From IMG/VR virus record IMGVR_UViG_3300012667_000409, positions 1 through 31,661 of that record: 31,661 nucleotides of DNA; one strand, written 5' to 3'. The DNA comes from a virus (lineage: Duplodnaviria > Caudoviricetes). Of this stretch, positions 7,266 to 31,661 are shown piece after piece. A program made the position numbers and the translations under genes. The number at the start of each line of letters is the position of its first letter. Within the stretch, counting starts at the first letter, position 1. The notes under the pieces were generated by a model that searched no databases, had not been told where the DNA came from, and saw nothing but the letters and a program-made list of their open reading frames with translations.

Positions 7266-8999
7266 TTAATTTTGGTTGTTCAACCAGTCATCTAAGTTGT
7301 GCAAAGTATGCGTGTCGTTATCATAGTAGACGTTACCAGCAGGTCCAGTCAATCCACAAATACGATTCTTACTGAGTACAACTTTGGTTGTATTGCGTTC
7401 GGTTGGGTCTTCTGCGTATTTATTTCGACTTAGCAAAATGTTAGCTGAAGCTGATTTAATAATAGTAGAACTACCCTGAATTTCTTCTTCTGTGAATGCA
7501 CCACCCTGTGAAGAGTTTTGTACTCCAGAAGCTGATTTACGAACGTGGTTAATGAAGATCAAAGTTACATTGTGACTCTTAATGATACCCTTGGACCATT
7601 TCATAAACAACGCTTGGTCTTCGTTTGATAAACCATCAAGAATGTCCTGCAAAGGATCAAGCACAATGATTCTACAACCGCATGATACTACAAGTTCTTC
7701 TACTGTATCTTGAATCTCTTCGATTGTACCATCACGATTATCAAGTAGGTAAAAGCGATGCTGACCATCTTCATTGTAGAAAAGCTCATTTGCTTTATCA
7801 CGTACTTTGTCAGATTCCAGCAAGTCTTTCTTTGCGTTGTCATCTTGAATCAACGATAGTTTACGACTCAAATGCCGACCTAGTAAAGTCTCTCCATATT
7901 GACCTGAATCTAACTCCATAGAAACAATACCGATTTTATGCGGCGAATTGAAAATCCAGTGATAGATCATTTCATTAACAAAAGATGTTTTACCAAGACC
8001 AGTACCTGCAGCAATATTGATGATGTGACCCAACGGTAGACCACCAACAAGCATTTCGTTCAGTGTATTCATAAATGGTGGAAACGGTACTTTCGCAACT
8101 GTAGCTTGAGCTAGAATCTTATCGTACAGTTCACCAGAACCAAGTACACCAACTGGTGTGTATCGCTTTGCTTCATAGAAGTTGCGTACAAACTCTTCCT
8201 CTTTACCTTCTTCAAGATAAGTATTAGGGTCTTTGTATCGCATGTGCATAATCTTAACTTTACCCTTGGGTAGAGCCTTGACTACTTCTTCTGTTGCTTC
8301 TTTACCAGCTTTGTCATTGTCATAGCACACAATAATTTGATCGAAGGTGTCGAAGAAACGATATTGAGCAGCAATTTGTTTGTGTGAATTAGCACCAGTA
8401 GTAGGGCTAACAACAGCAGTTTCATAACCAGAACCACGATTCTTGTTATAGTCCGAAAGCATTTGATAAGCAGATAACGCATCTAATTCACCTTCTGTGA
8501 TTAGAATATATTTTCCACCACGGTTAAATTTAAACTGCATGAACAATTCGCATTCAGCACCAGTGCGACCTTTAGAATAAAAGTTCTTTGGTACTTCACG
8601 GATTTTGTATCCTACAATCTGACCATCTTGAGTAGCTGGATAATATTGCTCTTCAACATCACCATCTTCATCATACGCATAACGTACACCAAAAGGCTTT
8701 GTGGTTTCATCTCTTAGTCCACGAAAACCCTTACCAGCAACACCAGTTACAGATTTGATGTAATCATTCTCTTCCAGTGTCATAGCAGGTTTACCACTAG
8801 GTTTAATTTCCATACTCTTTTCTTCCTTTGTAATTGATGTTCTAACTCGTGTAGTCTTCTTGGAATTTTGTTCCTTGAATTCACTAGATGGTTTCACAGC
8901 TTGACATGACCAGCAATATGATGAACCACCTTCGTATAATGCTTTAGCATCTGAACTTCCGCATTTTTCACAACTTGTATGTTTAATAAAGTTTGCCAC
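7266..8999 (-). CDS. DNA primase-helicase (T7 gp4-like)
   Basis: Zn finger CEKCGSSD...CWSC, TOPRIM TEGELDALS and YDNDKAG, Walker A AGTGLGKT, DnaB-type QGSS and KNR motifs. Confidence 0.95.
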   Translation of the reverse strand: MANFIKHTSCEKCGSSDAKALYEGGSSYCWSCQAVKPSSEFKEQNSKKTTRVRTSITKEEKSMEIKPSGKPAMTLEENDYIKSVTGVAGKGFRGLRDETTKPFGVRYAYDEDGDVEEQYYPATQDGQIVGYKIREVPKNFYSKGRTGAECELFMQFKFNRGGKYILITEGELDALSAYQMLSDYNKNRGSGYETAVVSPTTGANSHKQIAAQYRFFDTFDQIIVCYDNDKAGKEATEEVVKALPKGKVKIMHMRYKDPNTYLEEGKEEEFVRNFYEAKRYTPVGVLGSGELYDKILAQATVAKVPFPPFMNTLNEMLVGGLPLGHIINIAAGTGLGKTSFVNEMIYHWIFNSPHKIGIVSMELDSGQYGETLLGRHLSRKLSLIQDDNAKKDLLESDKVRDKANELFYNEDGQHRFYLLDNRDGTIEEIQDTVEELVVSCGCRIIVLDPLQDILDGLSNEDQALFMKWSKGIIKSHNVTLIFINHVRKSASGVQNSSQGGAFTEEEIQGSSTIIKSASANILLSRNKYAEDPTERNTTKVVLSKNRICGLTGPAGNVYYDNDTHTLHNLDDWLNNQN

Positions 9000-9546: not shown

Positions 9547-10590
9547 TTATTCATTTTTGATCAACCATTTATTTGAGATAGCCTTAAAACTACGATCATG
9601 AATGCTGTTACTCTTGAATACAAGACCTTCACGTTCAGAAGCATTAAGTTCTGACTTACCTTCAGCTTGTGCAAGAATACCCGAAACACTTTCACCTACA
9701 AGCGAAATGTCTTCAGCAAGAATTGGTACATGCTTTAGACCCAAACGCTCACACGCAGCTTTAAGTTGCACAGGCAAAATGTATTGCCCTGTATGAGTAT
9801 TGTACATGTCATAGACGTAGAAGTCAAGCTGAGTTTTGTACTGGTTACCTTGGATGCCTTCACCAATCATCTCACCTTGGATAGCCATACCCTTCATGAA
9901 ATTGCGGCGCATAATATCCTCAACTTGGAACTTACGTGCTACTTTCCAGAATGAATTTGCTTCGTCTTCTTTCAAATCTAAGTTACGTGAGCATACATGA
10001 AATACGTCTTCATCATCCAGATAGAACGTGCAAGAGGAACCGTCAAGCTTTTCAGTAATTGACCAAGTATCTTCTTGGAATTTACCATTAAATTCTTTTA
10101 CAAGATTCTGAATACGCTCTTGATCAGTCTTTGGTACTAGTGCAGGGAAATTACCTCGTGCCATACCAGCAAGTTGAGCATTCATTGGGCGCTCCCATTT
10201 GAGGATACCAAGCTGTTCAGTTACATCAAGACCCTCAAGATCAGAAAACCACGGAGTAGGTCGAGGTCCAATTTTTGCTTCAAGATTTTTGTCAAGAGCT
10301 AGCAACAAACCTTGTGAGATTTGACCACGTAGTTTAATTGTGCGTAGACGTTCACCTTCTACACCTTCAAATACTTTTGGAAAGTGTCCAGCTTTGGTTA
10401 AAAATGGTGCAAGGGTTGTTGGAACCCACGAATCAATTTCAAGGTATACAGCAAGATCACCTGCAATATATTCACCCTTCTTTACTACGACTTTCCAGCC
10501 ATCGACTACAGCGACTTCAATAGCGTCTGCACCTTCGATGGGTTCAATTGCTGCAATACTGCGAATGGTTGCGAGTTTACGTTCTGTCAT
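9547..10590 (-). CDS. ATP-dependent RNA ligase, DRB0094/Rnl5-like
   Basis: N-terminal OB-like RKLATIR...IEGADAIE...VDGW; motif I TEKLDGSS; QGE, EGLVFK, FKAIS. Confidence 0.9.
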   Translation of the reverse strand: MTERKLATIRSIAAIEPIEGADAIEVAVVDGWKVVVKKGEYIAGDLAVYLEIDSWVPTTLAPFLTKAGHFPKVFEGVEGERLRTIKLRGQISQGLLLALDKNLEAKIGPRPTPWFSDLEGLDVTEQLGILKWERPMNAQLAGMARGNFPALVPKTDQERIQNLVKEFNGKFQEDTWSITEKLDGSSCTFYLDDEDVFHVCSRNLDLKEDEANSFWKVARKFQVEDIMRRNFMKGMAIQGEMIGEGIQGNQYKTQLDFYVYDMYNTHTGQYILPVQLKAACERLGLKHVPILAEDISLVGESVSGILAQAEGKSELNASEREGLVFKSNSIHDRSFKAISNKWLIKNE

Positions 10591-19853: not shown

Positions 19854-19987
19854 CCGAACTATTCATTGCACTCGTCACGCTTGTTATTTTAGCATTTATT
19901 GCTAGTTTATTTTTTCTTTTTGATAATGAAATACTTCATGGGTATTTTGCCAAGAAGATTCGTAAATATTTTGGAGTTGAAGAATGA
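19850..19987 (+). CDS. small membrane protein ending FGVEE (45 aa)
   Basis: Read by hand: MTELFIALVTLVILAF...IRKYFGVEE*. Confidence 0.7.
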   Translation: MTELFIALVTLVILAFIASLFFLFDNEILHGYFAKKIRKYFGVEE

Positions 19988-20493
19988 ACAATAACATTAA
20001 AGCTGGCGCTGATATCAATGCTGGTGACGGTGGTTACAGCGAAGGTACATTAGAAGGTTATGAACAATTTTCTAAAGCTCGAAACAAATCCAGAGGTAAA
20101 CCTACTCTATATTTAATCCGTGGAGTTCCCGGTTCGGGTAAATCAACCTTTGCACAAGTACTTCTTGATGAATTTGTAGTACAACGTATCTATGAAGCTG
20201 ATCAATACTTTGTACAAAACGGTGAATACCAGTTTGATCCTACACTATTGGAAGATGCACATAATCAATGCAAGCGAAATACTTGGCTTGCGCTGTACGA
20301 AGGTATGTCAGTTGCTGTATCAAATACATCTTGTGCTGAGTGGGAAGTTGAAATTTATGCTACAATTGCACGAGAGACTGAAGCTAACTTTGTGAGTGTT
20401 ATCATCGAGAATCGACACGATGGTAAGAACATTCATGGTTGTCCTGATGCTAAAGTCGAACAGATGAAGCGAAAGTTTAGTGTTAAATTGTAA
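19984..20493 (+). CDS. P-loop polynucleotide-kinase-like protein (AAA_33)
   Basis: IRGVPGSGKST, EAD, VAVSNT, HGCP. Confidence 0.85.
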   Translation: MNNNIKAGADINAGDGGYSEGTLEGYEQFSKARNKSRGKPTLYLIRGVPGSGKSTFAQVLLDEFVVQRIYEADQYFVQNGEYQFDPTLLEDAHNQCKRNTWLALYEGMSVAVSNTSCAEWEVEIYATIARETEANFVSVIIENRHDGKNIHGCPDAKVEQMKRKFSVKL

Positions 20494-20502
20494 AGGAATA
20501 AA

Positions 20503-21396
20503 ATGCTGTTGACATATGATGAACAAATGCTACTAGTTAATCGTGGATTAGCTACACTCAAAAACGATGGTAAATACACAACGTTCAAATATGCACGTAA
20601 AGCAATGTATGAATATCTGTGGCATCAAATCCCTCAGTTGCTTGAATGCAGAGGTCATGTATATGATAATGCTATACATACTCTTGTGCAAGCTGCTCCA
20701 CGTAAGTCCTTCAATTATCTTGAGCGTGGTCATTGGTTGGATATTCCATTAGATACTCCAGTTGAAATGTACAAGAAGGTCAATGGTTTTATGGCTTGTG
20801 CTACAATTCATGATAGTGAACTCATTGTATCTACTACTGGTACTACTACAAGTGAATATGCTAAATGGGCTAAAGAGCTGATCCAACGTGATTATAAGTA
20901 TTACGATTTGGTGATCGAACGAGAAGTTACTACACTATTTGAAGTGGTAGTACCTCAAGACCCACACATTGTTCAAGAACGTGAAGGGCTGCATTTGCTT
21001 GGTGTGCGTGAGAAGGTTAACGGTAATTTTCATCCTATGGGTGAAAGCATTCGTTGTACTCTTTCACAGGCATTGGAAATTGCAAAGTATGATCGTGGTG
21101 AAGGCTTTATGCTGTATCCTATGCTACCCAATGGTTTGTATGATTACAACAACTGCTGTAAACTAAAGACTCCATATTACGTTGGTAAAAAGAAATTGAT
21201 GCGTATGACAGCAAAGAATGTTGAAATCATGTATAAAGATGTGCATCATTTTAAAGAACAGTTATCTAAAATGTGGTATACTGCTGCAAAATGCATTGTG
21301 AAAGATTTCAATAAAGATGCTTGGTTACAATCTACAGATCAGCAACGCAGATTAGTTCTTGATAATTTTAAATGGAATGAACATGCAGGGGCATAA
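20503..21396 (+). CDS. T4 Rnl1-like RNA ligase (divergent)
   Basis: ECRG...RKSFNY...YKKVNG (motif I)...LFEV...DPHIV...EGF...KLKT. Confidence 0.7.
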   Translation: MLLTYDEQMLLVNRGLATLKNDGKYTTFKYARKAMYEYLWHQIPQLLECRGHVYDNAIHTLVQAAPRKSFNYLERGHWLDIPLDTPVEMYKKVNGFMACATIHDSELIVSTTGTTTSEYAKWAKELIQRDYKYYDLVIEREVTTLFEVVVPQDPHIVQEREGLHLLGVREKVNGNFHPMGESIRCTLSQALEIAKYDRGEGFMLYPMLPNGLYDYNNCCKLKTPYYVGKKKLMRMTAKNVEIMYKDVHHFKEQLSKMWYTAAKCIVKDFNKDAWLQSTDQQRRLVLDNFKWNEHAGA

Positions 21397-21571
21397 TTTT
21401 AATCGCACATTACACGCTAAAGGCATGTTTGTGTATTGTAACAACTGTGGCCTTATTCGTTTGAATAATCGAGCAACTGAAAAGCAGATTAACAAACCTT
21501 GCGTTGGATTGCGAGAATTAGAAGACGAAGAGTATTTAAAACTTAAAGGACAAATGAAAGGTAGAAAATGA
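21383..21571 (+). CDS. small CxxC protein (62 aa)
   Basis: MQGHNF...YCNNCGL...PC; start uncertain. Confidence 0.65.
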   Translation: MQGHNFNRTLHAKGMFVYCNNCGLIRLNNRATEKQINKPCVGLRELEDEEYLKLKGQMKGRK

Positions 21572-22149
21572 AAATATTTACAAGTGATCTACACCACATG
21601 CATAATCGCATTGTTGAATTCACCAATAGAGGTGAAAGTACAACACAAGAAAATCACACGCAGTGGTTAACTGAAGTATGGAACAAGAATGTAAGCTCAG
21701 GTGATCTTGTTTATCACTTGGGAGATTTTTCATTTGCTAAAAAATATGATGAAATTGTAAAGTTTACCTTTCACTTGAACGGTCAAAAGATTTTCATCAA
21801 AGGTAATCATGATAAGCGAGAGCATCTAGATCAACTTGTGAAAGATAATTTGATTCAAGCATGGTATGATTACAAAGAGATCAAACTCCAAGACATTCCT
21901 ACTGTACTATTTCACTTTCCTATTGCAAGTTGGCATCGTCAAAGTCATGGTGCAATTCACCTACATGGTCATTCTCATGGTAATTTTAAAGATTTCCGTG
22001 GAAAAATGCTTGACGTAGGGATAGATTCAGCATATAATCTGTATGGAGAGCACAAGTTTATTACAGAAGATGAAGTAATAACTTTCATGCAGCACGAAGA
22101 TATTTACACAGCAGATCAACATAGAAAGGTTACAGATGCAAAAGATTGA
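21568..22149 (+). CDS. calcineurin-like metallophosphoesterase
   Basis: SDLH, LGD, GNHD, FHFP, HGHSH. Confidence 0.92.
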   Translation: MKIFTSDLHHMHNRIVEFTNRGESTTQENHTQWLTEVWNKNVSSGDLVYHLGDFSFAKKYDEIVKFTFHLNGQKIFIKGNHDKREHLDQLVKDNLIQAWYDYKEIKLQDIPTVLFHFPIASWHRQSHGAIHLHGHSHGNFKDFRGKMLDVGIDSAYNLYGEHKFITEDEVITFMQHEDIYTADQHRKVTDAKD

Positions 22150-31113: not shown

Positions 31114-31290
31114 ATGTTTATTAAATTTAGATCAAGAAAAGATGACTTTACATTTGTACTAAATGCTTTTCAAATCATTGCTATTCATGAAACAGCAGAC
31201 AAATGTACTTGTATTATTACTACAGATAATGAACGATATTATAGTTGTGAGAAATACAAAGATGTATATGAAAAACTAGAATCACTATGA
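31114..31290 (+). CDS. hypothetical protein (58 aa)
   Basis: TAAGGAG RBS; MFIKFRSRKDD... Confidence 0.7.
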   Translation: MFIKFRSRKDDFTFVLNAFQIIAIHETADKCTCIITTDNERYYSCEKYKDVYEKLESL

Positions 31291-31305
31291 ATAAAGGAGA
31301 AAATC

Positions 31306-31503
31306 ATGGACGTTATTTTAGCTAAAGAAAACGCTGATGGCAGTGCAGTATTTACTTTTGATATGACAGCAGAAGAGACTCGTATGATGGTCTTGCTAGG
31401 CATTAAAACAGCCCTTCTAGCTGGTCTTGAAGATGCAAAGCTCTGGAATGGTGATGCTGACCTTGCAGAACTACAACAGGACAACCAAGGGTTATCCGAC
31501 TGA
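31306..31503 (+). CDS. hypothetical protein (ENADGSA motif)
   Basis: AAGGAG RBS. Confidence 0.75.
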   Translation: MDVILAKENADGSAVFTFDMTAEETRMMVLLGIKTALLAGLEDAKLWNGDADLAELQQDNQGLSD

Positions 31504-31565
31504 AAGACCTTATGTTTTACTAGGGTATAAAGCAGATGTAAAAAGTTGTGCTACAATAGAGTCAT

Positions 31566-31651
31566 ACTGAGATAGCTTAATGATAGAGCGGTGGGCACAC
31601 AGGTAACGACGACTACCCATATGTGCAGGTTCAACTCCTGCTCTCAGTACC
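31566..31651 (+). ncRNA. tRNA-like RNA with a 20-nt anticodon loop
   Basis: Acceptor ACTGAGA/TCTCAGT, D arm GCTT/GAGC, stem GTGGG/CCCAT around CACACAGGTAACGACGACTA, T arm GCAGG-TTCAACT-CCTGC. Ends A-CC-T. TGTGCTACAAT -10 lies just upstream. Confidence 0.75.
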
Positions 31652-31661
31652 TTTAACTTCA

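Follow-up and report, generated by a model that had tools for sequence, protein, structure and literature searches.

Cloverleaf-like RNAs that present single-stranded loops are known from bacteriophages, among them the C4 antisense RNA of P1 and P7 and the CI RNA of P4, and an engineered tRNA scaffold, in which a cargo RNA replaces the anticodon loop of a tRNA body, is reportedly available for recombinant RNA. RNA1, RNA2 and RNA3 of phage T5 (AY543070) and rnaC and rnaD of phage T4 (NC_000866) are likewise tRNA-like or stable RNAs that do not decode and have tRNA arms, encoded among tRNA genes; the three T5 RNAs are annotated as 'tRNA-like stable RNA with unknown functions'. The YrlA Y RNAs, tRNA-mimicking non-coding RNAs that are also found in phages, have been described as a tRNA-like domain joined to a Ro60-binding module and are encoded beside the Ro60 gene (PMC4201824). 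Phage tRNAs have been proposed to counter tRNA-targeting defence (PMC10264068), and phage RNA mimics of antitoxins are described as well (PMC3475682).

Here we describe a family of phage RNAs of only 84-85 nt that depart from tRNA in one module, a 20-nt loop that takes the place of the anticodon loop. The founding member lies at the end of a 31,661-nt stretch of viral DNA (the window), which is the whole of record G000, estimated to be 41% complete. Judged by its sequence, the family belongs to the same class of phage tRNA-like RNAs as T5 RNA1-3 and T4 rnaC/D without being homologous to these named members: there is no homology in the head (the anticodon stem with its loop), the loop motif is absent from the T5 and T4 RNAs at 2 mismatches, and they score no more than 23 bits with the family model R1, against 80-105 bits for members. 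The family RNA is also smaller than the named T5 and T4 RNAs except RNA3 and, unlike them, has only its anticodon loop changed and also occurs alone behind its own promoter. Unlike YrlA, the element has no Rfam Y RNA match, and no Ro60 gene goes with it (a search of 5 carriers, including 2 complete ones, found no TROVE gene, PF05731). It differs from C4 and CI in that its loop has no complementary target in its own genome and no Rfam match, and from the engineered scaffold in being natural and under selection.

With canonical tRNA (RF00005), and most closely with phage tRNA-Ile(UAU) and tRNA-Gln(UUG), the family has in common the cloverleaf, U8, A9, A14 and the 15:48 pair, whereas its 20-nt loop has neither U33 nor an anticodon, its acceptor is free, and G18G19 and CCA are mostly missing. 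Phage tRNA-Ile(UAU) genes share both the D arm and the GYGGG/CCCRY stem with the family, the D arm of the element being letter-identical to that of an ordinary tRNA-Ile(UAU) in record LR756502, and they are likely to represent the ancestor class. No description of the family was found in searches of full-text literature largely outside the subscription journals, and it is apparently undescribed. The available text of a review of non-canonical tRNAs does not contain the word 'phage' (PMC7609411), and the corresponding text of the paper on Limnohabitans phage DC31, a close relative of the window, mentions only its 6 tRNA genes (PMC12195039). Of the 10,006 candidate structured RNAs in a survey of viruses (PMC10690425), five are named as tRNA-like, having been selected by their overlap with ARAGORN calls; the available tables of that survey give no match for loop words or contig identifiers, and the family may be listed unnamed in its alignment archives.

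The Rfam tRNA model RF00005 scores 55.6 bits on the element (E 2.1e-10) and places the extra bases in the anticodon loop; no further Rfam family reaches its cut-off there. An earlier note, made from the letters alone, had read here four fully pairing stems (G-U pairs allowed), the T loop TTCAACT and a 20-nt loop replacing the 7-nt anticodon loop, and all of this is confirmed (Table 1). ARAGORN did not call the element in the window, where it found only a tRNA-Met and a tRNA-Arg elsewhere, and among 23 member loci it called one, as tRNA-???. Single-sequence folding was weak (z -1.49, with 17 of 200 shuffles equally good) and did not form the anticodon stem, so that the cloverleaf rests on covariation across 27 homologues.

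Table 1. Features of the tRNA-shaped element and its surroundings in the window
Feature	Coordinates	Strand	Description	Basis
Early-type promoter	31540..31557	+	A-tract and extended -10 (TG 31549-31550, TACAAT 31552-31557)	sequence; recurrence
tRNA-shaped non-coding RNA gene	31566..31649	+	nt 1 to discriminator A73	RF00005, family model R1, covariation
Acceptor stem, 5' strand	31566..31572	+	pairs with 31642-31648, 7 bp; sequence free, pairing kept	
U8, A9, D arm, G26	31573..31590	+	D stem 31575-31578/31586-31589 with one U-G pair; U13-G22 invariant; D loop has GA where canonical tRNA has GG	
Conserved 30-nt head	31591..31620	+	stem GUGGG 31591-31595 / CCCAU 31616-31620 with one G-U pair, closing the 20-nt loop	
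20-nt loop	31596..31615	+	consensus NMMAYAGGY-NNN-RACGNCUA; probable small inner hairpin	
Variable loop and T arm	31621..31641	+	4-nt variable loop; T stem 31625-31629/31637-31641; T loop UUCAACU	T-stem covariation
Acceptor stem, 3' strand, with A73 and CC	31642..31651	+	A73 at 31649, then CC; CCA not encoded	
AU-rich trailer	31652..31661	+	runs to contig end	identical copy L001: Shine-Dalgarno, then ATG 24 nt past acceptor stem

Homologues were sought with several search patterns. When only the D arm and the anticodon stem were fixed and loops of 10-35 nt were allowed, IMG/VR yielded 52 loci, 15 with a 20-nt loop; the 9 distinct 20-nt loops among these all fit one motif, and the remaining 37 loci were for the most part ordinary tRNAs, joined by a small number of unrelated genes with long loops. 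The earlier note had proposed that in an alignment of homologues a variable loop of fixed length would suggest a guide and a conserved loop a protein ligand, and the outcome points to the latter. A loop-based scan of IMG/VR returned 15 members among 25 loci, a stem-free scan 16 among 42, with the GYGGG stem kept in all 16 family hits, and a scan of metagenome contigs 24 among 31; in these later scans part of the conservation is built into the search patterns. Matches to the head that lacked a tRNA body (10 of 25 in IMG/VR and 7 of 31 in the metagenomes) look like chance, so that the scans brought out no head standing by itself. Pattern scanning of 185,579 GTDB genomes gave two matches, neither with a tRNA body, and searches of plasmids and GenBank phages gave no family member. 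The total comes to about 40 records, 16 IMG/VR contigs and 24 metagenome records, of which at least 2 are repeat filings of contigs already in the set. They hold 28 distinct cores, the window's included; with L091 left out as a truncated copy of L098, 27 sequences were aligned, which make up 10 lineages at 85% scaffold identity, many of the sequences being close relatives. With model R1, which members match by construction, the window scores 103.8 bits and the 22 members searched 80.6-104.9, while all else, ordinary tRNAs included, stays at or below 57.3. Scans for loops of 5-9 nt on the same frame found 5 ordinary tRNAs with unrelated acceptors, and a variant D arm added 2 more; in IMG/VR the acceptor and D arm of the window occur together in 3 records, each with the 20-nt loop. 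A normal 7-nt loop in close relatives, which the earlier note had named as one finding that would speak against it, did not appear: loop length is 20 nt in each of the 27 aligned sequences.

Thirteen of the 21 cloverleaf pairs change on both sides across these sequences, namely all 7 acceptor pairs, 4 of the 5 T-stem pairs, D pair 11-24 and anticodon-stem pair 28-42. None of 500 shuffles, a control that ignores kinship, reaches the covariation score, and in slid control structures the paired share falls to 38-52%. Pair 15:48 is kept in every sequence, as A:U in 26 and as G:C in one. Mean identity among the 10 lineage representatives amounts to 34% in the acceptor, 79% in the D arm, 89% in the anticodon stem, 79% in the loop and 70% in the variable and T arms. 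The frame is under selection for shape and the head for letters, the letters of the acceptor being free. Pairs G29-C41 and G31-C39 are G-C throughout and G30-C40 in 26 of 27, and the 13 distinct loops share 11 invariant positions out of 20. An inner hairpin of A6-U19 and G7-C18 within the loop is plausible, the mean modelled pairing probability being about 0.6 with the stem enforced; the letters of these pairs never vary, and hence allow no covariation test. For the hairpin tip the alignment does not separate two registers, of which 8-17 with 9-16 is broken at 8-17 in 13 of 27 sequences and 8-15 with 9-14 is broken at 9-14 in 2. The earlier argument that intact stems speak against random decay is strengthened by these compensatory changes and by a loop that is fixed in three types of phage.

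By the standards of a decoding tRNA, the RNA retains the four-stem cloverleaf and the core tertiary pair 15:48; it lacks the 7-nt loop with U33 and a purine at 37, acceptor and discriminator identity, and the elbow of G18G19 and TΨC. The discriminator is A in 14 sequences, U in 12 and G in 1, CCA is encoded at 74-76 in a single sequence, GG stands in the D loop of 3, and the T loop begins with UUC in 16. With an acceptor of such low identity, a mixed discriminator, and CCA and GG so rare, the RNA would therefore have no fixed aminoacyl identity.

The DNA polymerase encoded in the window shares 94.6% identity with its counterpart in Limnohabitans phage DC31 and 69.8% with the one in Curvibacter phage P26059A. 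The gene upstream of the element is present in DC31 too, but there a promoter-like site and the next gene come after it and the element is absent, and the family-model search found no element in any of 5 related GenBank records, DC31 included; the element is thus optional. An identical copy stands after a different upstream gene in a complete genome of 79 kb (L001, genome G005), between leader letters that are adjacent in an element-free early cassette of the same genome, which suggests insertion of the element into the standard early leader. Each of the 5 carriers searched whole holds one copy. Two RNA ligases, a kinase-like ATPase and a phosphoesterase are encoded in the window at 9547-10590 and 19984-22149, likely an RNA repair set; both ligases are also present in DC31.

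The early-type promoter that the earlier note ascribed to the element has its -10 box 8 nt ahead of nt 1, which would place the start site at 31563-31565, with a leader of 1-3 nt. The same extended -10 motif stands ahead of other early cassettes of the window (28630, 28958 and 29458) and of early cassettes in G005, and it lies 7-8 nt before nt 1 in DC31-like homologues and in L084/L108. The motif is real and recurrent, but a sigma-70 scan of the window did not list the extended -10 at 31549-31557, and the motif is found inside genes too, a consensus match rather than proof. The terminal CC without CCA, also remarked on before, is as the letters have it, but in the element-free early cassette of L001 the same leader runs straight into ACC; the CC after A73 may come from the ordinary early leader, and as a CCA remnant it is not informative. 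The window contig ends 10 bases beyond it. One contig of a freshwater metatranscriptome spans 31548-31661 with 2 differences, no gap, no joint and the loop unspliced, though it extends upstream of the promoter and may be DNA; it came from 4 sequencing runs that were compared, none of which showed a joint, out of 7 with small matching shares; all the matching sequences are contigs, which can speak only to presence.

At least three widely differing types of phage carry the family (DC31-like, small siphovirus-like and T4-like), and L084/L108 and L098 provide further settings. In DC31-like phages the element comes first in an early cassette, 23-26 nt before the ATG. Among small siphovirus-like contigs, L069, L140 and L126 carry it ahead of the terminase small subunit and L119 between a Cro-like gene and a replication gene, and in the tRNA regions of T4-like and other large phages 10 of the 27 members adjoin 1 to 18 tRNA genes. 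The downstream genes are unrelated across types (small early genes, the terminase small subunit, a replication protein). A comparison of 978 ORFs, drawn from DC31, the window and 8 carrier records, turned up no protein family that all three phage types share; in such a set a shared phage partner could be missed, since several records are fragments, the siphovirus-like ones being 17-87% complete. The nearest isolates are phages of Limnohabitans and of Methylophilaceae (terminase 62.8%), which suggests freshwater betaproteobacteria as hosts on the strength of nearest isolates only, and weakly so for the T4-like group, at 51% to a Methylophilales phage versus 49.7% to cyanophages.

Several further observations concern the carriers. 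In the siphovirus-like lineage of L119 (2461-2589) the acceptor helix is longer by 13 base pairs. A complete 166-kb T4-like carrier with 24 tRNA genes (G001) encodes a two-piece (permuted) tmRNA with the tag ANDSVFALAA at about 31191-31580 of G001:C1 (L178 11191-11580). In T4-like arrays (L146 2416-2648, L089 246-487, L088, L150, L100 and L105) one copy of an inverted repeat of about 19 nt begins with the NCCA end of an ordinary tRNA (Gln, Lys), and the copy that pairs with it lies downstream; the repeat brackets the family RNA too, and in L089 the base changes favour hairpins that sequester each CCA end, a possible 3' processing element. Long inter-tRNA gaps without clear ORFs occur in L082, L086, L089, L124, L136 and L150, and in several arrays such stretches share short words downstream of the element; they possibly hold further non-coding RNAs, for which Rfam gives no match.

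Other phage genes are also tRNA-shaped, with a similar D and T arm and enlarged but mutually unrelated anticodon modules: the L201 group (20 IMG/VR records) as well as L187, L189, L192, L199, L204, L205, L224, L232, L234, L240, L245, L253 and L261, all at or below 53 bits with model R1 where scored. L003 carries three tandem tRNA-like genes of 88-102 nt on the minus strand (1222-1558), each with an anticodon-loop insert, which may be intron-bearing tRNAs, and in L041 (1494-1710) a group I intron (RF00028, 54.2 bits) interrupts the anticodon loop of a tRNA gene. TRNA-like genes with long anticodon regions that fall outside the family were seen in L010/L043 (1494-1592), L024 (2084-2210) and L136 (1239-1334).

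A number of likenesses of the loop were examined and set aside. Twenty loop-profile tests on the 16S and 23S rRNAs of E. coli, covering mimicry and antisense pairing, gave as best results 23S 1828 in sense (p 0.02) and 16S 273 in antisense (p 0.04), neither of which survives 20 tests, and a likeness to 23S 2445-2456 in the peptidyl-transferase centre reached p 0.16. The single loop match with 3 mismatches, at 7324-7339, runs in the sense of the primase-helicase mRNA, and with 0.15 expected it lies close to chance. Loop positions 9-14 (Y-NNN-R-A) could be pictured as a displaced anticodon loop, but the triplets differ greatly and lack a closing stem of 5 bp. Nor does RF02519 support a likeness to the ToxI antitoxin: it gives no match at the element, and its best match elsewhere in the genome has only 7.8 bits (E 3.5).

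A synthetase substrate would conserve its acceptor, a guide would vary its loop and an intron would restore an anticodon; the pattern fits none of these and is read most simply as the mark of a fixed binding partner. The aptamer and the decoy are the best of the earlier proposals left, and we lean, with a little less than even confidence, towards a tRNA-shaped RNA, likely non-decoding, that would present its fixed 30-base head to a host protein as an early decoy or inhibitor. Such an RNA would be transcribed from the predicted early promoter, its leader being almost nil, and set free by host tRNA-processing enzymes, array members sitting among ordinary tRNAs; it would not be charged with a fixed amino acid, and its tRNA body would serve as a stable frame on which the conserved head is displayed. 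Action in trans is indicated by the 10 members beside ordinary tRNA genes and by neighbours that differ between phage types. The partner would be a host rather than a phage protein, and the role that of a decoy or inhibitor, since the element is optional, is early in one lineage, moves between unrelated phage types whose host group is probably the same, and was found with no accompanying phage protein. Defence that targets tRNA is the foremost guess, with the phage tRNAs and antitoxin mimics noted above as precedents. In the least certain step, this partner would be a tRNA-binding enzyme, for instance a tRNA-cleaving defence nuclease of freshwater betaproteobacteria; a nuclease decoy might, however, be expected to keep a tRNA-like anticodon loop, and the family RNA does not. 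A bolder version, which we regard as unlikely though worth stating, sees in the element a portable, RNA-only anti-defence gene whose tRNA body would dock on a betaproteobacterial tRNA-targeting defence enzyme while the head blocks the active site; it would have passed among the siphovirus-like, Pakpunavirus-like and T4-like phages that infect these freshwater hosts, as one of many interchangeable heads on tRNA frames.

The place of the element in many members fits a role in cis. In DC31-like members, L084/L108, L069 and L140, 7-8 nt separate its start from the -10 box and 22-27 nt its end from an ATG with a Shine-Dalgarno site, an arrangement that suits a 5' leader whose tRNA-shaped domain stabilises the early transcript or controls translation of the next gene, perhaps via a ligand; with downstream genes unrelated, and with the array members among tRNA genes mostly lacking a nearby start codon, such a leader is decidedly unlikely. 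Three G-C pairs in the anticodon stem are a hallmark of initiator tRNA, and since the family has them in 26-27 of 27 sequences and its stem stayed GYGGG in the stem-free scan, the RNA might bind the ribosome as a mimic, its G-C stem seated in the P site and its long loop filling the mRNA channel in favour of phage translation. The degenerate elbow, the absence of a significant loop match in E. coli 16S and 23S rRNA, and the occurrence of the same stem, perhaps inherited, in ordinary phage tRNA-Ile(UAU) and tRNA-Gln make this more doubtful still. A head that captures a small molecule in the manner of an aptamer or sponge, for example a host-defence nucleotide signal, appears improbable: a compact loop of fixed length whose 11 invariant bases are mostly unpaired or weakly paired would resemble a ligand pocket, but Rfam offers no match to a riboswitch or aptamer, even with the threshold at E 10, and we know of no precedent for a stoichiometric RNA sponge.

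The constant loop length would also suit an antisense or guide RNA on a tRNA frame, in the manner of C4 of P1 or CI of P4, conceivably with a conserved target in the host. Against this proposal of the earlier note, phages that are unrelated keep the loop conserved instead of varying it, the loop's variable positions show no codon periodicity, and Rfam gives no C4 match. The longest loop match elsewhere in the genome measures 8 nt in the window (41% of its genome), 10 nt in G005, which is complete and has the same loop, and 9 nt in G001, with a shuffled range of 8-13; this upholds the earlier by-eye impression that the window holds no complement, and with none in E. coli rRNA either, a guide is quite improbable. 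The other early idea, a precursor tRNA from which a 13-nt intron is excised and sealed by phage RNA ligases, drew on the ligases, kinase-like ATPase and phosphoesterase of the window, and it fails on several counts that leave it with very little likelihood. When a contiguous stretch of 13 nt is removed, whichever of the 8 registers is chosen, not one of the 13 loops is left with both U33 and a purine at 37, loop position 2 being never U; ligases and element occur independently, DC31 having both ligases without the element and complete G001 the element with neither ligase family; acceptor identity is not conserved; Rfam finds no group I or II intron core at the element, using the library that detected the intron in L041; and the RNA-library contig runs through the loop without a joint, a weak point given that it may be DNA. 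A decaying tRNA pseudogene or a contig-end assembly error, for which the nearness of the contig end and the drift of the D and T loops could be cited, is scarcely credible in view of the identical copy behind a different upstream gene in a complete genome, the 20-nt loop in every IMG/VR record with the same acceptor and D arm, and the compensatory changes and fixed loop across about 40 records and three phage types.

For the tRNA-like stable RNAs that are annotated without a function in T4 and T5, the family described here offers a good test case. Its sharp head consensus tells an experimenter what to mutate, and a cultured near relative without the element, Limnohabitans phage DC31 (host DCL3), offers a natural background. 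Because tRNA finders skip the family, it is invisible in routine annotation. If the head does inhibit a host enzyme, it would add a class of RNA-only counter-defence and would open a way into the numerous other foreign heads that phages carry on tRNA frames.
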